DNA from: Nanobdellota archaeon
Lineage (GTDB): Archaea > Nanobdellota > Nanobdellia > Pacearchaeales > GW2011-AR1
NCBI GenBank assembly: GCA_021818475.1
Contig: JAKADZ010000003.1
Location: 27,988-91,987 of the forward strand
Length of the DNA stretch: 64,000 nucleotides
Reading direction: 5' to 3'
Under the pieces are notes generated by a model. It had not been told where the DNA came from, made no database searches, and saw only the letters and a program-made list of their open reading frames with translations. This document shows, one piece after another, positions 5,708 to 62,811 of the stretch. Position numbers and translations under genes: made by a program. Every line of letters starts with the position of its first letter. Positions within the stretch are counted from its first letter, which is position 1.

Positions 5708-6077
5708 TTCTTTAGGCTCACCTTGTCGCCTATTAATACCATTACGCCCCAGACTTTGTCAAGGCGCTTCATTCAATAAGTTATCGCGATAAATCTAAGT
5801 TAAACAATTAATTTTTTTTTCACATTAAATATTTTTGCGAAGAAATCTAACAAAGTTGATTTCGAAGCTTTGAAAATTTGCGAGTGAAGTGAGCAGAATA
5901 TTCTTCCCTTCAGAAAGTTTTAAAACCTAACAAATAATTTATAATTTATCAAGATGCCTCTGCGCGAAATTTATTGAGCGTAGAGCGAACGAAGTGAGCC
6001 TCCGTCGCATATGAGAACCTCCTGCGGGTTCTTCACAGTTCCAGCATCCATGGAACAATATGCTTGTTGGCAAAGAT

Positions 6078-6205
6078 GCCTCCGTCGCATAATGGTATTG
6101 CACCGGTCTTGAGTGAGGATAAAACCTCCTAATTGTTCGTCGAGGTTTCGTCAAACAAGAGAACCGGGCCTTTATGGCTTCCAGGTTCGATTCCTGGCGG
6201 GGGCG
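6078..6205 (+). tRNA. tRNA-Ser (anticodon UGA) with a ~48-nt intron at the canonical 37/38 position and a long variable arm
   Basis: Manual fold: acceptor GCCTCCG/CGGGGGC (one G-U pair); D-arm GCAT-AATGGTAT; anticodon stem CCGGT/ACCGG with loop CTTGAGT (U33, anticodon TGA 6110-6112, R37); intron ~6114-6161 interrupting the 3' anticodon stem; variable arm GCCTTTATGGCTT (13 nt); T-arm CCAGG-TTCGATT-CCTGG; discriminator G; CCA not encoded. Confidence 0.7.
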
Positions 6206-6366
6206 TGATGGCGTGATGCGGGCTTGAAATGCCCGCCTGTTCTTAACAAAATTAATGCTAGATTATTCTGAAAATTCGATTCCGAGCGATTTCACGAATG
6301 CGGGAAATTTTTGAAAGCAATGAGTGGGGTCGCGAGCATTGACGGGGGCGTTCCTACAAAATGTCT

Positions 6367-7599: not shown

Positions 7600-7712
7600 A
7601 TAACTACTTATTATTAATGTTTAATAATTTTTTCCTTCTTTGATTTTAATCTGGTTTGGCATTATTGCATAATATATTCCTCAAAGATATTTTATCTGGG
7701 CGTTCGTCACTT

Positions 7713-8036
7713 TTATCCCATCAAAATTCTGCTGATAATTCCTATCACAATTCCCAATCCCGCAATCCCCCCGATTACAGTTATCTTCTTTGCTGTGGAA
7801 ACTTTTTTGATATGAAGCATAAATGCAATAATCATCAGGACAAGATACCAGAGGGCATCAAGAAAATACCAGTCGAAAATCTGCAGTCCGATTTTTGCAA
7901 ACCCTGTAAGATGCGGGACAACATAATTTTCCAGATAAAAATAAATCGGGTCGATAGGACTAGGAACTAATGTTCCTATGAATGCCCCAAGTAAAAAAAT
8001 TCCTATCTGTGACTTAAAAAATTTTTCTTTTTTCAT
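7713..8036 (-). CDS. small integral membrane protein, hypothetical
   Basis: 107 aa with 3-4 hydrophobic helices. Confidence 0.35.
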   Translation of the reverse strand: MKKEKFFKSQIGIFLLGAFIGTLVPSPIDPIYFYLENYVVPHLTGFAKIGLQIFDWYFLDALWYLVLMIIAFMLHIKKVSTAKKITVIGGIAGLGIVIGIISRILMG

Positions 8037-22072: not shown

Positions 22073-22134
22073 ATCAGCCTTGAGCAGTATTTCAGTGGGA
22101 AATTCGAGCGGAAGAAACCGGAGGTGTCGTCGCA
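22073..22134 (+). repeat. repeat family 2, copy a (5' UTR of secE; supplies its GGAGGTG Shine-Dalgarno)
   Basis: ATCAGCCTTGAGCAGTATTTCAGTGGGAAATTCGAGCGGAAGAAACCGGAGGTGTCGTCGCA is ~85% identical to 58656-58719 and related to 27626-27690. Confidence 0.6.
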
Positions 22135-22314
22135 ATGAAATTAATTACTAATTTAAAATCATTTTACGAGAAATGTAAAAGAGTGTGGATGGTTTTGAAA
22201 AAACCAAGCAAAGATGACTTTCTCAAAATCGCAAAAGTATCTGCAGTTGGAATTCTTGTAATTGGAGTATTAGGTTTTCTGATTTCTATTATTATGAAGT
22301 TTTTCACCCAGTAA
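22135..22314 (+). CDS. secE: protein translocase subunit SecE (Sec61 gamma)
   Basis: Manual translation MKLITNLKSFYEKCKRVWMVLKKPSKDDFLKIAKVSAVGILVIGVLGFLISIIMKFFTQ: 59 aa with a single C-terminal TM; lies upstream of the Spt5-L11 neighbourhood. Confidence 0.65.
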   Translation: MKLITNLKSFYEKCKRVWMVLKKPSKDDFLKIAKVSAVGILVIGVLGFLISIIMKFFTQ

Positions 22315-22315
22315 G

Positions 22316-22780
22316 ATGGAAAAATTAAATAATAAAAATTTTTGGACTCCTTTATTTATCGCTTCAATTATATCTATTTTATTACTCTTTTTTGCTTTAC
22401 CTTATGCTTTACTCATCTCTTTAAAATTGTTGATAGAGAATGTTCAATCCTATGGAGAAACCCTTTTGATAGATATTTTTCTCCTTCCTTTATTTTTAGT
22501 TATTGCTATACCCCCAATTTTTTTTATAATAAAGCGATTATTAAGTGATAATCCAAAAAAAGTTTTTTATTTTGAACTTCCAATTTTAATAATAGTTTAT
22601 TCAATATTATTAAGTCTTAATCAACTTTTTGGATTGATGATGGGGGGACCAAGAGATACAACTTTCCTACTTTTTCTGAGTTTAATTCTTCCGCAGATAA
22701 TAGTCATTTCTCTTTGGCTCGTTCTTCTGACCTTCTCTTTATATTTTTATTATAAGAAAAAGATTATAAACCGCAGATAA
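22316..22780 (+). CDS. integral membrane protein, hypothetical
   Basis: 154 aa with 4 hydrophobic helices; starts 2 nt after the secE stop. Confidence 0.4.
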   Translation: MEKLNNKNFWTPLFIASIISILLLFFALPYALLISLKLLIENVQSYGETLLIDIFLLPLFLVIAIPPIFFIIKRLLSDNPKKVFYFELPILIIVYSILLSLNQLFGLMMGGPRDTTFLLFLSLILPQIIVISLWLVLLTFSLYFYYKKKIINRR

Positions 22781-24801: not shown

Positions 24802-24873
24802 TACTACTAAAAATTTATAAACCCCAATTTTCACTTAATTATATCTTTCTAAGATATTAAGTCTTAGACGGAG

Positions 24874-24930
24874 CCGAGCGATTTTGCGAGTGCTGGTAAA
24901 AATAAAAATGCAACGAGCAGGGTCGGGAGC
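24874..24930 (+). repeat. GC-rich repeat family 1, copy B (upstream of spt5)
   Basis: CCGAGCGATTTTGCGAGTGCTGG...AAATGCAACGAGCAGGGTCGGGAGC; shares the CCGAGCGATTTYRCG core and the GGGTCG.GAG tail with copies at 6281, 26221, 37588, 44405 and 56872 (reverse orientation). Confidence 0.55.
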
Positions 24931-24941
24931 TAAACAAGAAA

Positions 24942-25394
24942 ATGATTTTCATAGTAAAAGTAACAACAAATAAAGAAGAAAGAGTTTTGGACATGATAGC
25001 TGAAAGAGCACAGAAAAAAAATTTAAACATCTTTTCAGTTTTTCGTCCTCATGGACTTAGAGGTTATGTTCTTTTGGAAGCAGAAGACAGAGAATCTGCT
25101 GAAGAAGCGGCATTTGACTTGCCTTATGTTAAAGGAATAATCGGGAAAACAATTAATTACGACGAGATAAAAAATATGGTTGAACCTTCTGCAGCAACAA
25201 TATCAATCAAGGAAGGGGACATTGTCGAAATGATCGCTGAACCTTTCAAAAAAGAAAAAGCGAAAGTTATAAGAATAGATAAACAAAAAGATGAAGTAGT
25301 GGTAAGCTTGCTTGGAGCAGTTGTTCCATTGCCGGTTACTGTTAGATTAGATAACGTTAAAGTCATAAGGAGAGAAGAAGAAAATGCAGATTAA
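24942..25394 (+). CDS. spt5: transcription elongation factor Spt5 (NusG homolog; NGN + KOW)
   Basis: 150 aa; KOW-like GDIVEMIAEPFKKEKAKVIRID; its stop overlaps the L11 start, as in archaeal spt5-rpl11 operons. Confidence 0.85.
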   Translation: MIFIVKVTTNKEERVLDMIAERAQKKNLNIFSVFRPHGLRGYVLLEAEDRESAEEAAFDLPYVKGIIGKTINYDEIKNMVEPSAATISIKEGDIVEMIAEPFKKEKAKVIRIDKQKDEVVVSLLGAVVPLPVTVRLDNVKVIRREEENAD

Positions 25395-26103: not shown

Positions 26104-26176
26104 GGGGCTGTGGGGTAGCCTGGTAGCCTTAGAGGTTTGGGACCTCTCGACCCCGGTTCAAATCCGGGCAGCCCCA
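26104..26176 (+). tRNA. tRNA-Pro (anticodon UGG)
   Basis: Manual fold: acceptor GGGGCTG/CAGCCCC; anticodon stem AGAGG/CCTCT with loop TTTGGGA; T-arm CCCGG-TTCAAAT-CCGGG; discriminator A; 73 nt, no intron. Confidence 0.8.
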
Positions 26177-26220
26177 TTGTTTCGAAAAAATAAAACCCAT
26201 AACGGATTTGAACTTCAAAT

Positions 26221-26290
26221 CCCGAGAGTTTGCACGAGTGCGTGCAAAGATAAAAATGCAATGAGTGCGGGCTCGAGTTCGGCAGCCCCA
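26221..26290 (+). repeat. GC-rich repeat family 1, copy C, ending in a 12-nt copy of the tRNA-Pro 3' end
   Basis: CCCGAGAGTTTGCACGAGTGCGTGCAAAGATAAAAATGCAATGAGTGCGGGCTCGAGTTCGGCAGCCCCA; GGCAGCCCCATT at 26281-26292 repeats tRNA positions 26167-26178. Confidence 0.6.
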
Positions 26291-26313
26291 TTTAATAAAA
26301 TACAGAAAAGAAA

Positions 26314-26535
26314 ATGCCATCAAAATCAAAAAAAACAAAATCAGCAGGAAGATTCGGAGCAAGATACGGACGTTCAGTCAGAATTAAACTTGTTAATGTT
26401 GAACAGAAGCAGAGGCAAAAACAGGAATGTCCTTACTGTCATAAACTCGGAGTCAAAAGAGTTTCAAAAGGAATTTGGGAATGTTCAAAATGCGGAAAAA
26501 AATTCGCATCAGACATATACTATTTAAACAAATAA
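26314..26535 (+). CDS. rpl37ae: 50S ribosomal protein L37Ae
   Basis: GRFGARYG and C4 zinc ribbon CPYC...CSKC. Confidence 0.85.
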   Translation: MPSKSKKTKSAGRFGARYGRSVRIKLVNVEQKQRQKQECPYCHKLGVKRVSKGIWECSKCGKKFASDIYYLNK

Positions 26536-27610: not shown

Positions 27611-28297
27611 ATGGTAAAAACTCGCATCAGCCATGAGCACACTTTTAAAGGGAAAAACTGGAAAGAAGAACCGATTAGGTTCGTCTTCATTCCGGCTAAG
27701 ATAAAAGACGAGATTGATGAGAAAAAAATAAGCTCCCTGAAACTTCCCAAGACTTTAGCAATTGCTTATTCAATTCAATATAAGCCTATTGCAGAAAAAA
27801 TAAAGGAAATTCTTTCCAAGAATCATGAAATTACTTCAATAATTCAGGTTCTTGGCTGTTCTTCACCAAAATTTTCAAAAAACACAAAAGCAATTTTGCT
27901 TGTCGGTTCAGGAAGATTTCACGCTTTCTCCCTGCAGTTTGAGACAGGGATTCCTGTTTATATCTTGGAAGCAGATGAGCTGAAAAAAATTTCCGGCGAG
28001 GAAGTTGAATCTTTCAGGAAGAAAAAAACTGCATCTTACCTTAAATTTTTGAATGCAGACAAAGTAGGGGTATTGATATCAACAAAACCCGGGCAGGAAA
28101 ATCTGAAAACTGCTCTTTCTCTTAAATTAAAAGATAAAAAACAATATTTCTTTTTGGGGAATAACATTGATACTCGGGAATTTGAAAATTTTGGATTAAC
28201 TTCATGGGTGAATACTGCCTGTCCCCGACTGGATTATGACAGCTCAGTAATAAACCTTGCAAATTTAAACTCGGGCAAGTCCAAAAACAGTTTTTAA
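27611..28297 (+). CDS. diphthamide synthase Dph2-like protein, apparently N-terminally truncated (two of three domains)
   Basis: ILLVGSGRFHAFSL, VGVLISTKPGQENL, WVNTACPRLDYD resemble Dph1/Dph2 domain motifs; 228 aa versus ~330 expected. The first ~25 codons are repeat family 2, copy b. Confidence 0.4.
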   Translation: MVKTRISHEHTFKGKNWKEEPIRFVFIPAKIKDEIDEKKISSLKLPKTLAIAYSIQYKPIAEKIKEILSKNHEITSIIQVLGCSSPKFSKNTKAILLVGSGRFHAFSLQFETGIPVYILEADELKKISGEEVESFRKKKTASYLKFLNADKVGVLISTKPGQENLKTALSLKLKDKKQYFFLGNNIDTREFENFGLTSWVNTACPRLDYDSSVINLANLNSGKSKNSF

Positions 28298-36777: not shown

Positions 36778-37128
36778 ATGTCACAGACAACACGGGAAAT
36801 CACCCTTAAGGAATCAAAAGGAACATTTTCAATATTCAGGAAATCGTCGTCAAATAAAGAAAATTATGATTTTTCAGGGATTTCCGCATTAAGACAGCTT
36901 CTAAGCAACGAAAAGGCAAGAATACTTGATGTAATAAAAAATGAAAATCCTTCTTCATTATACCTTCTGTCTAAAAGGCTTGGGAGAGATTTCAAATCTG
37001 TCCACGAAGATGTAAAATTGCTAGAAAGATTTGGATTTTTGGAGCTTGTAGAGGAAAAAACAAAGAACAGAATAAGGCATAAACCAAGGCTTATTTCAGA
37101 TTCTATAACTATTCACATAAAACTTTAA
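36778..37128 (+). CDS. small winged-helix transcriptional regulator (HTH), divergent from the S-layer-like gene and adjacent to the pilin cluster
   Basis: LDVIKNENPSSLYLLSKRLGRDFKSVHEDVKLLERFGFLEL resembles an ArsR/PadR-like wHTH. Confidence 0.45.
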   Translation: MSQTTREITLKESKGTFSIFRKSSSNKENYDFSGISALRQLLSNEKARILDVIKNENPSSLYLLSKRLGRDFKSVHEDVKLLERFGFLELVEEKTKNRIRHKPRLISDSITIHIKL

Positions 37129-37712
37129 CTGTAAACAGTCAGAGAAACCTCATAATCCTGCCCGCTTCTTGCAAAATCCTGGAATCCTCCCTGATATTCT
37201 GCAGTTTTATTCCCCTTATCAATAGTAAGCTTGTCCTGTCCGTCAGCACTCACTTTCAGCTCATATCCCTTTATCGCGCTTTGATTCCCCGCATTCCACG
37301 AGTTTTCAACTATTCCCGCAAACGTCGAATTAAGAACATCACAGCTTGCCCTTCCGTCAATACAGCTTTCTCCGCTATTGCATGATATAATCAAATCCTG
37401 CAGGTTAAGAAATTGGATTTCATTCTCGCAGTCAGTGGTGTATTGGAGTGAAGCCTGAATAAAACTGTCAATCTGGTAACTTTCAGTTGTTCCTTTGGTT
37501 GGGCTTTTTATTAAAAAACTAAGCAAAATCAGCAATCCTACTGACACAATGATCGCAATAAGCGCAAATCCAACCATTTCCTCTTGCCCCGAGCGATTTC
37601 GCGGAGTTAAGGTCAGTGATTTGGAAGCGAGGTCGGGAGTTGTTTTGTTGCGGTACAAATGAAAAAAATTTCCTGTTTTTTGCTTCTGCCCTTTATTATT
37701 TAATCTTATCAT
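37125..37712 (-). CDS. archaeal type IV pilin-like protein (class III signal peptide, long leader)
   Basis: ...KSLTLTPRNRSGQEEMVGFALIAIIVSVGLLILLSF: basic residues then G-Q followed by a hydrophobic helix. The leader-coding region contains family-1 element D. Confidence 0.55.
   Translation of the reverse strand: MIRLNNKGQKQKTGNFFHLYRNKTTPDLASKSLTLTPRNRSGQEEMVGFALIAIIVSVGLLILLSFLIKSPTKGTTESYQIDSFIQASLQYTTDCENEIQFLNLQDLIISCNSGESCIDGRASCDVLNSTFAGIVENSWNAGNQSAIKGYELKVSADGQDKLTIDKGNKTAEYQGGFQDFARSGQDYEVSLTVYS
37588..37639 (+). repeat. GC-rich repeat family 1, copy D, embedded antisense in the leader-coding region of pilin gene 37125-37712
   Basis: CCCCGAGCGATTTCGCGGAGTTAAGGTCAGTGATTTGGAAGCGAGGTCGGGAG is ~85% identical to 44405-44460 although the rest of the two genes is diverged. 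Confidence 0.6.
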
Positions 37713-38308
37713 GTTGTGGTTTTATCCTCTGATGCTACGAGAAGCATCGCAAGTTCGCATTTATCATAAACAATTTTCCCGTCAGTTTCTTTTCTGCACA
37801 GGGAAATATAATTTGAACTGTAAGGAAGTATTTTCACATTTTGGTCCAAAATTTTTATATCTCCGCAGTCAGGATAATTATTTGCGTCGCATATTTTATT
37901 ATTTCCTGCAGGATAAATTACCCTTATCTCTATTTTTGCAACTCCCCAGAAATTTGAGTAATCTGAATTATTTTTTAAGGCCATCACTTTGTCAAAATCG
38001 ACACAGTCTGTCGCGCTGCTTCCAAAAGAATTTCCGCATGAAAATTCAGGGGAATTTGCAAGTTTTGATACGAGGAGCATAGAACTTTCTTCTGCAATAT
38101 TAACTGCGCTTTTCTTGACATTCGAGAGAAGTATTGAAAGGAAAAAAAGCCCGACGAGAACAAAGAGAATTGTGACTGCTATAATCATAAATATTGTCTG
38201 CTGAATTTTAATCTGCCCGGATTTGTTTTTAGCAGGCGTGACCACACTTTTAAATGGAAAATCCCACGAAGAAAATCTGTGAGGTGTCGTCGCTACCATA
38301 ACATGCAC
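37709..38308 (-). CDS. archaeal type IV pilin-like protein
   Basis: ...PAKNKSGQIKIQQTIFMIIAVTILFVLVGLFF; likely start is the ATG at 38299 (MVATTPHR); overlaps neighbours by 4 and 16 nt. Confidence 0.5.
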   Translation of the reverse strand: MHVMVATTPHRFSSWDFPFKSVVTPAKNKSGQIKIQQTIFMIIAVTILFVLVGLFFLSILLSNVKKSAVNIAEESSMLLVSKLANSPEFSCGNSFGSSATDCVDFDKVMALKNNSDYSNFWGVAKIEIRVIYPAGNNKICDANNYPDCGDIKILDQNVKILPYSSNYISLCRKETDGKIVYDKCELAMLLVASEDKTTT

Positions 38309-39273
38309 ACCCTCGCATTATTTGTCTGATCGATAGATTCTGCTTCTGCCTGAATAACAGATAAATCTGAGGATTGATTGAGGTTCCCCGCATCTTTCCC
38401 GAGGGTGTTCAGTTCTTCCCCTAAATTGCTGTCACATCCTTTTCCCTCGGTGATAAGCTCTTTATTTGCATAAAGTGAAGACAACTCCCTCAGTCTAAGC
38501 ATCAGCCTTTTAACCTGGCATTCATAGACAGTGCTGTTTGAAAAAATAGCGGCATACATCAATGCTTTTGAATCGCTGACTCCTGAGAAATACATGACCG
38601 TCCCGTTTTTCTCAACCGAATCAGAACTAAAGTCGACATTTATATTGCATCTCTGCTGACCGAAACAAACTTTCACGTCGCTGTCTGAACAGTCGTTAAT
38701 TTTTAAATTGCTCTGGTTTAACTGTGAAATTTCTGTGCTTATATCATTCGGAGCGCCAACAAAGCAATAATTCACGTCGGCAGAAGTGATGTACATTAAA
38801 TCTGCAATTTTAAACGGAAAATTAAACGGCTCAGAAAAAATATAAAATTTCTGCCCTTCTACCTGGCTTTCAGAAAAAATATATTTATTTTCAAATCCGA
38901 CTCGGGTATCTGTTGCGACCCATTTTCCAAAATTTTTCTGGTCTAACTGTATAACTTGCTGCCCAAAATCTCCGGTCGGAATGCATATATTATCTATCCT
39001 GGTATCTGTCGGTATTGTTATCGACGTAGTTTGTGCAGATTCAAAGCTGGTCTCCATCGGGTCGAGCAAAACCCCTATCTGCTGTCCTGTTTCAGCGCTT
39101 ACTGCTGTCTGTTGTGTTCCTATAAGTTTTGAACTGAGATAAATAGCAAGAAAGATTATTACTATCCCTGCGATAATTGCAAAAAGCCATCCAAAAGATA
39201 TTTCCAAAGCCCCTCTGCTGTTTTTTCCTGAAAAATTAGCGAGAGAAAAATTTTTATTCTGGCTTCTTTTCAT
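38293..39273 (-). CDS. archaeal type IV pilin-like protein (326 aa)
   Basis: ...FSGKNSRGALEISFGWLFAIIAGIVIIFLAIYL, class III signal-peptide pattern. Confidence 0.5.
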   Translation of the reverse strand: MKRSQNKNFSLANFSGKNSRGALEISFGWLFAIIAGIVIIFLAIYLSSKLIGTQQTAVSAETGQQIGVLLDPMETSFESAQTTSITIPTDTRIDNICIPTGDFGQQVIQLDQKNFGKWVATDTRVGFENKYIFSESQVEGQKFYIFSEPFNFPFKIADLMYITSADVNYCFVGAPNDISTEISQLNQSNLKINDCSDSDVKVCFGQQRCNINVDFSSDSVEKNGTVMYFSGVSDSKALMYAAIFSNSTVYECQVKRLMLRLRELSSLYANKELITEGKGCDSNLGEELNTLGKDAGNLNQSSDLSVIQAEAESIDQTNNARVCMLW

Positions 39274-39723: not shown

Positions 39724-39873
39724 ATCTAAAAATATCCAATATAACTTATAAATTTTTACATAACCAATCATCAGTCATGAGCACTATCTCAGGGGAAAAT
39801 GATTGTAGCGAAAAATAAATTTTTCACTAATTCGTATAAATCCAAATTAAAGAAACCGCGTAGGTTTCGTTCA

Positions 39874-43640: not shown

Positions 43641-44492
43641 TTATGTTGTTGGCGTTAAGTATCCTGCAGGCCATATTTGCCCTCTTATTGCAAACTGAAA
43701 TTTATCTCCTGTGTCTCTGTCAGTCAGTACGTAAATTTTTCCGTCATTTCCCCTCAAAATTTTTTCTGCTTTCAGATTATGATAGTAAGTCATGTATGTT
43801 GCTACATCAACATCACCATAACTTGCTTCCCATTCGATTATACTATTAGCTATTGAAACTAATTCATAAAGATTATTATTCACCAAAACAACAAATGAAT
43901 TATACTTCTGCGCATTTTCTCCTTTTGTCAAAGTTAAGGAATAATTAAAAGTTGCGACAATCCTGTTTGGAAATAATTCAACTGTTTTCATTCCAGGTTT
44001 TAAATCGACGCTGAATCCTTGTTTGACATAACTCTGCTGCATTGATGTAAAACAGGCATCGACGTTATTGCTTATCTGATTTTTAATCTCTGATTCAATA
44101 TGTGATTTTAACATTGGCTGCTGCACTTCGCACGGACGGTAATATTCATTTGTGTAACATAGGTATTCAACTTTTGAATCGTTGTAAAGAAGATAATTTG
44201 TTGCATTTATGCTTCCTCCCTGCAGTGAAAGAGTGTCGACGGCATTTTTAATATCCTGTTCAATGCAGGATTGAATAAATTGTTGCGGACTTTGCTGTGC
44301 TGTTCCCAAACTTGTTTTAATCTGCGGATAAAAACTATAAATAAGAAGTCCTACAGCGACGATGATTATTCCGATGATAATAAAAATAGTTACCTGCCCC
44401 GAGCGATTTCGCGGAAGTAAGGTCAGTGACTTGCAAGCGGGGTCGCAAGCAGTTTTATTACTTAGAAAATTATTTCCCTCTTTTTTATCCAT
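43641..44492 (-). CDS. archaeal type IV pilin-like protein (283 aa), paralog of 37125-37712 at the leader
   Basis: ...ACKSLTLLPRNRSGQVTIFIIIGIIIVAVGLLIYSF; the leader-coding region contains family-1 element E (44405-44460). Confidence 0.55.
   Translation of the reverse strand: MDKKEGNNFLSNKTACDPACKSLTLLPRNRSGQVTIFIIIGIIIVAVGLLIYSFYPQIKTSLGTAQQSPQQFIQSCIEQDIKNAVDTLSLQGGSINATNYLLYNDSKVEYLCYTNEYYRPCEVQQPMLKSHIESEIKNQISNNVDACFTSMQQSYVKQGFSVDLKPGMKTVELFPNRIVATFNYSLTLTKGENAQKYNSFVVLVNNNLYELVSIANSIIEWEASYGDVDVATYMTYYHNLKAEKILRGNDGKIYVLTDRDTGDKFQFAIRGQIWPAGYLTPTT
44405..44460 (+). repeat. GC-rich repeat family 1, copy E, in the leader-coding region of pilin gene 43641-44492
   Basis: CCCCGAGCGATTTCGCGGAAGTAAGGTCAGTGACTTGCAAGCGGGGTCGCAAGCAG. 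Confidence 0.6.
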
Positions 44493-56871: not shown

Positions 56872-56943
56872 TCCCGCCCACCCAACTCGAGCCCTCACTC
56901 ATTGCTATTATATTTTTTCCTGCATTCGTGAAAACTCTCGCCC
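56872..56943 (-). repeat. GC-rich repeat family 1, copy F (reverse orientation) in a convergent intergenic region
   Basis: Reverse complement reads GGGCGAGAGTTTTCACGAATGCAGGAAAAAATATAATAGCAATGAGTGAGGGCTCGAGTTGGGTGGGCGGG. Confidence 0.55.
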
Positions 56944-58655: not shown

Positions 58656-58719
58656 ATCAGCCATGAGCAGTATTTTAAAGGGAAATTCGTGCGGAAGAAA
58701 CCGATAATGTGTCGTCGCA
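58656..58719 (+). repeat. repeat family 2, copy c
   Basis: ATCAGCCATGAGCAGTATTTTAAAGGGAAATTCGTGCGGAAGAAACCGATAATGTGTCGTCGCAG. Confidence 0.6.
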
Positions 58720-61731: not shown

Positions 61732-62811
61732 TCAATTTATTTCCTCCTCCTCTACTTCAATTCTGTCATGGGTTGGATATTCCTCGACTCTGAAAATTTT
61801 ATATTTTCCTTCTTTCAGTAATCTTCTTGCAACCTTTTCGGAAAGAATAGTCCTTTTCTTTTTTTCGTCATAAAAAACCCCTTTTAATTTAATTTTTTTT
61901 CGACTTCCTGTCGGGTTGCTGGAGTTGTGAAGAACCCGCTGGAGGTTCCCATTGATTACCAGATAAATAACAGTTCCCTCTTCTGTCCTTTTTCCATACG
62001 GAAGAATCTCATGTCTCTTAAGTCTGTTGGCAAACTGGCAGAGATTTTTCAAATCGGCAGTGCACAAATGAACTTTCAGTTTTATTTTTTTATCAGCCAA
62101 CTGATTTAAAATCCATTTCCCCGCTTCAAGACTTCCTGCGACAACATATCCTCCTTCTTCAAGTTCGTATTTTTTTGTTATTATGTCAAAATTTGTTTCT
62201 GATAATTCGAATTCATTCAGGTTAACAAATGAAATATATTTTTCAGTTCCGAAGATAAAATCTAATATCTCATGTTTTCTTTCAGGAATCATCGGCATCT
62301 CAAGTCCGATATTCCGCTTACCGAATATTTTTTCCGCCATTTCTATTTTTTTGATATCATCATCAACTTTGTTTTGGTTTATGAGGAACTCTGGGTGGAA
62401 TCTGACTTCATCGACGCATTTTTTTAATTTTTTTAATTTTTCTTCTGTGACCAATTGTGTCGGAAGGTAAATATGAATATGAAATTTTTTTCCGAATTTT
62501 TCTTTTAATGCAGAGGCAAATTTAATCGTTCTGCCAAAATAAATTAAAGGATCTCCTCCGGTGATTCCTGCAGAAGGGGCTCTGCTCTCTATCGCTTCCT
62601 GTATAATTTCATCGATATTTTTTACCTCGCGTTCATTTGCAAAAATTAAATTTTTGTTTTTTCTTTTTTTGCTTAATGAACAGTACCAGCAATTTTTTTT
62701 GCAGACTCCTGTTACGAAAAGAACTAATTTTTTTCCTTTCACGCAGTATTTGCATCCGTTTGCAACGCCGTTAACACAGAAAGAATCAAATTTTGTTTTT
62801 TTAGTTTTCAT
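61732..62811 (-). CDS. radical SAM protein with extra N-terminal cysteines
   Basis: CKKNCWYC (CX3CX2C); upstream CVNGVANGCKYC; glycine-rich ITGGDPL SAM motif. Confidence 0.55.
   Translation of the reverse strand: MKTKKTKFDSFCVNGVANGCKYCVKGKKLVLFVTGVCKKNCWYCSLSKKRKNKNLIFANEREVKNIDEIIQEAIESRAPSAGITGGDPLIYFGRTIKFASALKEKFGKKFHIHIYLPTQLVTEEKLKKLKKCVDEVRFHPEFLINQNKVDDDIKKIEMAEKIFGKRNIGLEMPMIPERKHEILDFIFGTEKYISFVNLNEFELSETNFDIITKKYELEEGGYVVAGSLEAGKWILNQLADKKIKLKVHLCTADLKNLCQFANRLKRHEILPYGKRTEEGTVIYLVINGNLQRVLHNSSNPTGSRKKIKLKGVFYDEKKKRTILSEKVARRLLKEGKYKIFRVEEYPTHDRIEVEEEEIN

Follow-up and report, generated by a model that had tools for sequence, protein, structure and literature searches.

The locus described here lies in a window of 64 kb, the whole stretch of contig JAKADZ010000003.1 that was analysed, from an AT-rich (~35% GC) DPANN archaeon of the Pacearchaeota/Woesearchaeota type. 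The L11 ribosomal protein encoded in the window matches metagenome-assembled genomes of this type best, and the identical protein is encoded on metagenome contigs of 157-215 kb in ENA and NCBI. An intact tRNA-Pro(UGG) gene sits between the genes for L11 and ribosomal protein L37Ae, and the 114-nt segment inserted between the tRNA and L37Ae is the subject of this analysis (Table 1). A TATA-like box (TTTATAAATT) stands ~26 nt upstream of tRNA-Pro, a spacing from which its transcript is probably nearly leaderless. Related metagenomic loci and genomes, numbered L002-L169, were used for comparison, and the gene and RNA searches of the window cover the 64-kb stretch only.

A direct repeat of the tRNA 3' end brackets the segment, which is non-coding. 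ARAGORN, Rfam, reading of the sequence and shuffles place the tRNA-Pro gene, a repeated 12-mer and a 19-nt palindrome where an earlier note on this DNA had put them. The 12-mer (GGCAGCCCCATT) occurs in the window at 26167-26178 and 26281-26292 only, even with one mismatch allowed; shuffled sequences hold a mean of 0.17 matches, and 1 shuffle in 100 reaches two. The palindrome (GGATTTGAACTTCAAATCC) spans 26204-26222.

The 12-mer is only the distal portion of a 22-nt copy that runs from the T-loop to the 3' end. TTCAAATCC at 26214-26222 repeats the T-loop of tRNA-Pro plus CC (26157-26165, positions 54-62), and joined to CGGCAGCCCCATT it matches positions 54-76 plus 2 nt at 21 of 22 nucleotides, the lone change being C for G63. 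This second copy of the tRNA end is cut exactly between positions 62 and 63 (62|63) by a 55-nt structured hairpin, CGAG...GAG (26223-26277), here called H2, followed by TT. The left arm of the palindrome, CGGATTTGAAC, is the exact reverse complement of tRNA-Pro bases 26156-26166 (T-arm positions 53-63), and it is this inverted T-arm copy ahead of the T-loop copy that creates the palindrome. The spacer upstream of it (26179-26202) is partly common to L003 and L121 (CCATAAC). The two ends of the insert, GTTTCGAAAA... on the left and ...GGGCTCGAGTT on the right, are unrelated, so that there are no terminal inverted repeats and the internal palindrome is in H2 only. The balance of this evidence tips toward reading 26178-26292 as a non-coding, non-autonomous composite insertion that is neither part of the tRNA nor a functional second tRNA.

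Table 1. Positions of the tRNA genes, insert parts and H2 copies in the 64-kb window.
Feature	Position	Strand	Basis or remark
14-nt direct repeat of tRNA-Ser 5' end, GCCTCCGTCGCATA, 66-nt insert between	5998..6077	+	5998-6011 = 6078-6091
tRNA-Ser(UGA), anticodon-loop intron	6078..6205	+	Rfam 41.4 bits; ARAGORN with introns allowed
tRNA-Ser trailer module	6275..6351	+	T-loop copy, H2 copy B, linker CAT, 3' copy
H2 copy B	6283-6336	+	tRNA-Ser trailer module
H2 copy A	24875..24929	+	NusG/Spt5 5' leader, inside GACGGAGC|TAAAC
Gene row: NusG/Spt5, L11, tRNA-Pro, L37Ae, RpoP, prefoldin beta	NusG/Spt5 24942-25394; L11 25384-26067; L37Ae 26314-26535		order conserved
tRNA-Pro(UGG), intact	26103/26104-26176/26177	+	ARAGORN; Rfam RF00005 58.1 bits
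Repeat copy 1, TTCAAATCC+GGGCAGCCCCATT = tRNA positions 54-76 + 2 nt	26157..26178	+	sequence read
A/T-rich spacer GTTTCGAAAAAATAAAACCCATAA	26179..26202	+	sequence read
H1L, left palindrome arm CGGATTTGAAC	26203..26213	+	inverted copy of tRNA T-arm
H1R, right palindrome arm TTCAAATCC	26214..26222	+	direct copy of T-loop + CC
H2 = family-1 copy C, structured hairpin	26223..26277	+	covariance model R1 73.8 bits; fold z = -2.8
Linker TT, then distal part of repeat copy 2, CGGCAGCCCCATT (26280-26292)	26278..26292	+	
Native-type junction TAATAAAATACAGAAAAGAAA, then L37Ae gene (26314-26535)	26293..26535	+	Pfam L37ae on orthologues
H2 copy D	37590..37639	+	antisense to 5' part of pilin-like ORF
H2 copy E	44400..44449	+	antisense to 5' part of pilin-like ORF
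H2 copy F	56880..56942	-	downstream of RNase HI-like gene, equal sense

The 114 nt behind tRNA-Pro are a true insertion with empty sites in relatives. tRNA-Pro follows L11 in ~70 of 80 related genomes, and in ~30 genomes the insert is absent and the L37Ae ATG lies 8-27 nt past the tRNA 3' end. The short junction reads ...CCCCAT ttaaataatacaaaataaaaa ATG in L004 and CCCCATT-TAACGACGAGAGAAACAAATAATAAA-ATG in the 86%-identical strains L166-169, and the window sequence after the second 12-mer, TAATAAAATACAGAAAAGAAA-ATG, resembles it. The comparison of orthologous loci that the earlier note had proposed thus bears out its idea of an insert. The ~30 short-form loci (L004, L012, L023, L037 and L071 among them) leave no room for a promoter ahead of L37Ae, a spacing that suggests that the L37Ae mRNA is made from the tRNA transcript; it appears to be released from a tRNA-mRNA cotranscript.

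Where the segment is present its state varies. It is intact in L136 and L121, carries a double H2 in L165, is truncated inside H2 in L003, and has lost its 5' end and kept a degenerate copy in L005; the decay in L003 and L005 argues against an essential role. L061 has a like layout with a divergent hairpin and copies its own tRNA end, GGTAACCCCAT. Among these apparent orthologues the copies track the substitutions of their own tRNA, with GGCAGCCCC in the window, GGTAGCCCC in L121 and GGTAACCCC in L061. The tRNA-Pro|L37Ae junction is a general hot spot, and 14 genomes carry inserts of 0.2-1.5 kb with open reading frames (ORFs) there.

Five H2 copies were found by repeat and pattern searches, and a covariance model built on them added a sixth in the window and further copies in relatives. 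The earlier note's "family-1 copy C" is present in the interval, an incomplete description of a hairpin that is one of six covarying copies and splits a 22-nt tRNA copy. H2 is laid out as CGA, one strand of a 10-bp stem, GAG, an A-rich loop, UGA, the other strand and GAG (GAGUUUGCAC/GUGCGGGCUC, with three U·G pairs). Every copy adopts one fold: a C-G pair and a tandem G·A/A·G lead into the 10-bp stem, which includes the three U·G pairs, and beyond a further G·A tandem come an upper stem of irregular shape and an A-rich loop whose sequence varies. Pairing in the stem reaches 97.5% over 48 distinct sequences, both partners have changed in 6 of the 11 pairs, and two U·G pairs are fixed in 45-47 sequences; shuffled and slid pairing controls score far lower. 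Given its conserved wobble and G·A positions, H2 pairs within a single strand, RNA or single-stranded DNA, and not as a palindrome of the double helix. Its A/T-rich loop raised the idea of a palindromic promoter or DNA operator, which is unlikely, as the stem retains T·G positions that are not palindromic in double-stranded DNA. A C/D-box reading was rejected on hand inspection, which showed no C/D boxes, and a kink-turn looks doubtful from its inconsistent geometry; the 3-nt bulge with a flanking C-stem typical of a kink-turn is regular in copy E only, and the tandem G·A is kept at both stem ends. Rfam searches (gathering threshold and E≤10) gave no relevant family, whether for H2, for the trailers or for a larger leader RNA described below; in the window the tRNAs alone reach threshold, and the best trailer match has E = 7. 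Elsewhere the one non-tRNA match is RT-16 RNA, a reverse-transcriptase-associated motif (68.8 bits, L063 1572-1731), outside the tRNA-Pro module that L063 also carries.

H2 is a mobile, multi-copy repeat. The NusG leader reads ...tcttagacGGAGCTAAA...ATG in most relatives, and the uninterrupted site (gacggagc|taaac) is found in L165 (95% L11 identity), L166-169, L002 and ~20 others. In the window copy A lies precisely within GGAGC|TAAAC, with a repeat of at most 5 nt (GGAGC). L006 and L049, which represent two separate leader lineages, have their own H2 at the same spot, and these are independent insertions. At tRNA-Pro, L165, the closest relative, has two tandem H2 copies at the TCC| site versus one in the window. 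In other genomes H2 occupies the gap from RpoP to prefoldin, or one or other of two hairpin tips within a larger conserved leader RNA. Copies within one genome are more alike than orthologously placed copies, and of 21 copies recovered without a bias towards tRNAs ~19 run in the direction of local transcription.

Several observations were made around the H2 copies of the window. L165-L169 have a 163-aa membrane-protein ORF between a PD40-repeat protein gene and NusG (L165 1205-1811 versus window 24802-24941); the 154-aa window homologue (22316-22780) lies upstream of the PD40-repeat gene instead, and the window gap from that gene to NusG is only ~140 nt, copy A included. The reverse strand of copies D and E encodes ...PRNRSGQ..., and the two may also be read as protein-coding sequence. 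Both copies lie antisense within the 5' regions of a pilin-like gene cluster (37125-37712, 37709-38308, 38293-39273 and 43641-44492, all on the minus strand) with class III signal-peptide motifs (..RNRSGQ, KNKSGQ or NSRGA) and a hydrophobic helix. The long N-terminal extensions of these ORFs may be artefacts, or D and E may be antisense RNAs. A second repeat family, ATCAGCCATGAGCA...GGGAAA...GAAACCnnnGGTGTC, recurs at 22073-22136, 27626-27673, 38233-38261, 39770-39868 and 58656-58703 and represents, in this genome, a structured 5' leader that is widespread in relatives (L023, L027, L050, L061, L075, L077 and L125). No Rfam family matches this leader, which ends ...GGAAGG..GGAAACC..GGUGUC-CUCGCA-AUG at the start codons of NusG, L37Ae, RpoP, L11 and others; it may be a novel RNA that regulates in cis or serves translation initiation.

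The sole other tRNA of the window, tRNA-Ser, is followed by a trailer module of equal architecture. Its T-loop copy is TTCGATTCC (6275-6283) and its 3' copy TGACGGGGGCGT (6340-6351), the tRNA itself reading TGGCGGGGGCGT. The gene next to the module is convergent, and the module is therefore not a leader. In the trailer between tRNA and module (6206-6272) GGCGTGAT is repeated in tandem, and a 6-bp hairpin (GCGGGC-TTGAAAT-GCCCGC) and, ~65 nt downstream, CTGA are present; this stretch loosely resembles a C/D-box small RNA without Rfam support. On the 5' side of tRNA-Ser, a 14-nt repeat of the tRNA start flanks a 66-nt insert. Within the first ~45 nt of this insert ~40 nt are homologous to 61900-61950 on the minus strand, inside a radical-SAM-like ORF (61732-62811, minus), and the orthologous locus L149 has the native uninterrupted flank agtga|GCCTCC. 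The arrangement on this 5' side has the look of an insertion with a 14-nt repeat and with filler DNA that was copied from another place.

The metagenome scan for further modules used a "TCC + hairpin" pattern and gave 67 loci, of which 34 are AT-rich with 9-10 of 10 stem pairs; the remaining matches are GC-rich coding noise. The scan demanded TCC ahead of the hairpin and favoured T-loop contexts, and the module counts measure recurrence, not frequency. Together the two window tRNAs and ~27 metagenomic loci provide 29 modules, each with an intact tRNA 24-190 nt upstream (780 nt in L149). Eleven tRNA types bear them: Arg, Gln, Met, Ser, Ile, Val, Pro, Lys, Leu, Glu and Gly. The left piece of a module is always the local T-loop variant (AATCC, ATTCC, AGTCC or GATCC) and stops at position 62, H2 lies exactly at 62|63, and the sequence past H2 repeats 8-15 nt of the local tRNA's own 3' strand. 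Twenty of the 29 modules hold an inverted copy of local tRNA positions ~52-63 and, after it, a turn of 3-4 nt; as these inverted copies span 62|63, they derive from an uninterrupted tRNA. Every T-loop piece and every inverted piece matches the tRNA beside it, so that the larger part of the "element" was templated on the spot, not imported. The recurrence at tRNA-Ser and at ~27 independent metagenomic loci excludes chance, and a chance repeat is also ruled out by the shuffles. The recurrence suggests that tRNA genes of this archaeal group are remodelled time and again in a way not described before; the literature searched yielded neither an account of the architecture, a split tRNA-end copy with a hairpin, nor one of an H2-type element in these archaea.

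The length of the repeat is not fixed and ranges from ~12 to ~57 nt across the 29 modules. In L102, L109, L115 and L156 the duplication runs 27-43 nt on into the downstream host flank, which marks these as recent local duplications and not imported attachment (att) sites. The flanks are 100% identical in L109 and L115, and the inverted copy and H2 are already present. The earlier note had taken the 12-mer pair for a simple 12-nt target-site duplication (TSD) or att core; a split 22-nt copy with an inverted T-arm, variable in length and able to include host flank, is neither. Its proposal of a miniature, non-autonomous insertion at the tRNA holds insofar as the segment is an insertion, flanked by repeats, with a mobile hairpin inside, and fails insofar as most of the sequence is locally templated.

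Variant modules widen the picture. L118 and L146 have nested or multiple 3' copies. A different insert, H3 (GTTTATGTTTYGAACAAAGTTCGRAATGTAGTGAGGAATTTATTTCCGAC), stands between the inverted T-arm copy and an uninterrupted 19-nt tRNA 3' copy in L063 (3282-3375) and L146 (~7680-7790), two unrelated contigs, behind tRNA-Pro and tRNA-Ile. L149 carries a 185-aa HD-domain ORF as cargo between tRNA-Ser and the module. In L113 (~2620-2770) the body of tRNA-Val(GAC) runs directly into T-loop, H2 and 3' end without an intact 3' end, and in L148 (~100-250) an H2-like hairpin lies in the T-loop of a tRNA (position 58/59); standard tRNA finders miss both genes. A motif, GGATRTCGGASTAAAYT, precedes the T-loop copy in the modules of L118, L124 and L149 (tRNA-Arg, -Val and -Ser). 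The palindrome of inverted T-arm and T-loop next to that copy is missing there, although L118 has an inverted T-arm copy further upstream, and together these features suggest a second module subfamily.

None of the readings that make the segment a tRNA gene fits. ARAGORN and Rfam find no second tRNA in the trailer, and after in silico removal of H2 ARAGORN finds no tRNA over the junction, which disposes of a T-arm intron; the interrupted copy lacks tRNA positions 1-53. A split or permuted tRNA is rejected on the intact tRNA directly upstream, with no partner 5' half and no bulge-helix-bulge (BHB). At the H2 junctions 0 of 40 hairpins have a strict and 5 of 40 a relaxed BHB, copies B and C not among them, and the relaxed criteria do recover the anticodon intron of the window tRNA-Ser. 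A known RNA family was likewise rejected in the Rfam searches.

A broader proposal is that the two hairpins and the tRNA-3'-like tail form a functional trailer or leader RNA, as a cis-acting element for L37Ae (processing, stability or translation), an L7Ae-type platform or a spliced back-up 3' half. The covarying H2 stem with its two invariant U·G pairs and tandem G·A at both ends speaks for such a role, as do the sense orientation of the copies and their place in the leaders of NusG, L37Ae and RpoP-prefoldin, the tracking of the local tRNA's substitutions by the copy, and the hairpin-bearing tRNA genes of L113 and L148. The earlier note had named the same arrangement in all relatives, with compensatory covariation, as the sign of a functional trailer; the hairpin does show compensatory covariation, but the arrangement is not in all relatives. 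The module is absent from most of them, including the 86%-identical strains, and is decayed in L003 and L005, which makes a functional trailer unlikely. The tRNA-Ser module faces a convergent gene, the junctions lack a BHB, no tRNA is restored by removal of H2, the T-loop of the modules often has a change or a 1-nt insertion at position 54/55, and no Rfam family matches. Taken together, a functional RNA is a highly improbable explanation.

The segment could instead be the remnant of an integrative element, with the repeats as attL and attR. A plasmid or virus with a tyrosine integrase would have entered the T-loop or 3' end of tRNA-Pro and restored the 3' end, its interior would since have been lost, and attR would later have been hit by H2. 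The stretch from the T-loop to the tRNA 3' end is the classical sublocation of integrase att sites, and the repeat coincides with it. The HD-domain cargo of L149, the nested 3' copies of L118 and L146, as if from repeated integrations, the ORF-bearing inserts at the tRNA-Pro|L37Ae junction in 14 genomes and the uninterrupted 19-nt copies in L063 and L146 all fit this origin. A published model for Caldiarchaeum ties mobile-element integration to tRNA fragments and intron gain (PMC3293823). Set against this, no integrase lies between the repeats, where the insert is ~100 nt, or in or near any module. Pfam searches of ten unknown window ORFs, in which the integrase or transposase envisaged by the earlier note was sought, gave helicases, an RNA methyltransferase and an HVO_A0114-like protein and no integrase, transposase or recombinase. 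No viral or plasmid att match was obtained: the tRNA-Pro 3' 20-mer has no exact match in 2.9 million viral contigs, the junction pattern has a single chance match in a GC-rich phage gene, and the 15 viral matches to the hairpin pattern are GC-rich coding sequences whose "stems" are unpaired. The 27-43 nt of host flank in the repeats of four loci would not be expected of an element-borne att site, the inverted T-arm copy is foreign to att sites, and the spacer of young modules is merely duplicated host flank. Of the features of an att site, the window has the 21/22 T-loop-to-end repeat and empty sites in relatives, and lacks a contiguous core and an integrase within the 64 kb. An att remnant is considered unlikely.

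The insertion and its anatomy, its recurrence and the structure and mobility of H2 are direct observations, and they are best explained, with a probability of roughly 55%, as a composite non-autonomous scar made of a locally templated partial duplication and a hairpin element with a preference for the T-loop's 3' edge. A local partial duplication of the tRNA 3' region, from T-loop position 54 through the 3' end into the flank, would have formed the first layer, with a short inverted T-arm copy (positions 52-63) at its left junction. The outcome would be an intact tRNA, a spacer, the palindrome and a displaced 3' fragment still joined to L37Ae by the native sequence. In the second layer the ~55-nt mobile H2, which resembles repetitive extragenic palindromic (REP) sequences and miniature inverted-repeat transposable elements (MITEs), would enter the displaced fragment at the T-loop 3' edge (...TCC|, 62|63). 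As single-stranded DNA or via RNA, H2 would prefer hairpin-forming sites, chiefly the conserved GGTTCRAWTCC motif. Selection would purge insertions into the working copy of an essential tRNA, lethal in a sole copy, and survivors would then always consist of an intact tRNA and a displaced copy carrying H2. The whole block would now be transcribed as tRNA-Pro trailer and L37Ae leader.

The same facts might be produced in one step by an element that targets the T-arm. It would nick at 62|63 and make a second nick at a variable distance downstream (target-primed or strand-displacement synthesis), leaving a TSD of variable length (63..x); only duplications that reach past the tRNA end would survive, and the inserted unit would comprise the inverted T-arm, the T-loop and H2. 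The right junction (H2|63) is precise and the left side variable, each repeat reaches at least 2 nt past the tRNA end at lengths of 12 to ~57 nt, and the young modules L109 and L115 are already complete, all as this predicts. The 14-nt repeat around the 66-nt insert at the tRNA-Ser 5' end and the hairpin in almost all partial copies also agree with it. However, H2 enters other sites without a long duplication, L165 shows H2 joining a pre-existing module, the pieces match each local tRNA, so that the "element" would have to be re-templated per site or be lineage-specific, and the scanned ORFs yielded no reverse transcriptase, Cas1 or histidine-hydrophobic-histidine (HUH) nuclease. One-step insertion is quite unlikely.

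Several points weigh against the composite scar. The non-tRNA H2 sites show simple insertion with a repeat of ≤5 nt (GGAGC), and H2 alone therefore cannot account for the long duplication and the inversion. Nearly every partial tRNA copy holds a hairpin insert (H2, or H3 in L063 and L146), which hints at a mechanistic link beyond two separate layers. No mobilising enzyme was found in the scanned ORFs, and no HUH/Y1 transposase or REP-associated tyrosine transposase (RAYT) is among those of the 64-kb window. The tracking of tRNA substitutions by the copies could reflect selection or gene conversion instead of a neutral scar, and the sense bias of H2 is compatible with a selected RNA function too. 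Finally, the statistic that H2 lies almost always behind a tRNA is biased by design, TCC being in the search pattern.

The duplication and the entry of H2 may have taken place together or separately. Coupling is favoured by the hairpin-bearing partial copies, the precise right junction and the variable left side; against it are the H2 insertions with ≤5-nt repeats elsewhere and the entry of H2 into an existing module in L165. It is tentatively possible, though not the favoured view, that H2 and H3-type relatives form an undescribed class of tiny DPANN hairpin elements that specifically target the universally conserved tRNA T-arm motif and insert duplicatively by a single-strand or RNA-templated route, regenerating an intact tRNA beside a hairpin-bearing fragment.

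It has long been asked how tRNA genes in archaea come to be interrupted, fragmented or split, and only a few examples underlie the proposed connection with mobile elements. From uncultivated archaea of the Pacearchaeota/Woesearchaeota type the modules add dozens of independent, partly very young events behind 11 tRNA types, with one architecture and a hairpin that is gained or lost between close strains. The order of events, the enzyme and a conversion of hairpin to intron are now testable in existing metagenomes and metatranscriptomes. Modules generate pseudo-tRNA fragments and hairpin-containing tRNA genes that standard finders miss or misjudge, and where a ribosomal-protein gene would otherwise adjoin a tRNA without a gap they alter its leader. 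A T-arm-targeting hairpin class, if true, would be a living example of tRNA genes gaining insertions, fragments and perhaps introns or split genes.

Comparison with known systems begins with H2 itself. It resembles REP and REPIN sequences and MITEs (the REP-RAYT system and the palindrome-associated transposable elements, PATEs, derived from IS200/IS605) as a short, multi-copy, mostly intergenic imperfect palindrome with a CGAG head, strand-specific non-Watson-Crick positions, precise presence or absence, tandem copies, and homogeneity within and divergence between genomes. It differs in that no RAYT or TnpA was found with it, in its strong sense bias, in its insertion at the T-loop edge and in the tandem G·A at both ends of a 10-bp stem. 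Of the features of cut-and-paste MITEs, a fixed-length TSD and terminal inverted repeats are missing, and multi-copy polymorphism is seen for H2 only. Casposon and CRISPR-type integration at tRNA 3' ends leaves a TSD of 14-15 bp. The tRNA 3' end as target, the many repeats of 12-15 nt and the 14-nt repeat at the tRNA-Ser 5' end are similar, but here the repeat reaches ~57 nt, terminal inverted repeats are absent, no Cas1 gene was found, and a T-loop copy lies inside the "element".

The module as a whole is closest in outline to tRNA att duplications and cis-mobilizable elements (CIMEs), such as the archaeal pNOB8 and SSV types and the Caldiarchaeum tRNA-Thr fragment model (PMC3293823). There, too, a tRNA 3' repeat starting in the T-loop brackets foreign DNA past an intact tRNA, and presence or absence in relatives, the L149 cargo gene and nested repeats extend the likeness. 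What sets the modules apart is that a hairpin interrupts the distal repeat at 62|63, that an inverted T-arm copy is present, that the repeat can reach 27-43 nt into host flank, that the insert measures only ~100 nt, and that no integrase was found. Unlike archaeal non-canonical tRNA introns and split genes, they have no BHB, an interrupted piece without positions 1-53, an intact tRNA just upstream and a hairpin that also occurs in mRNA leaders. They nevertheless share with these introns, and with intron transposition, the related hairpins at 62/63 in different tRNAs, the near-perfect rejoining of the flanks and, in L113 and L148, single cases of a hairpin in an otherwise continuous tRNA.

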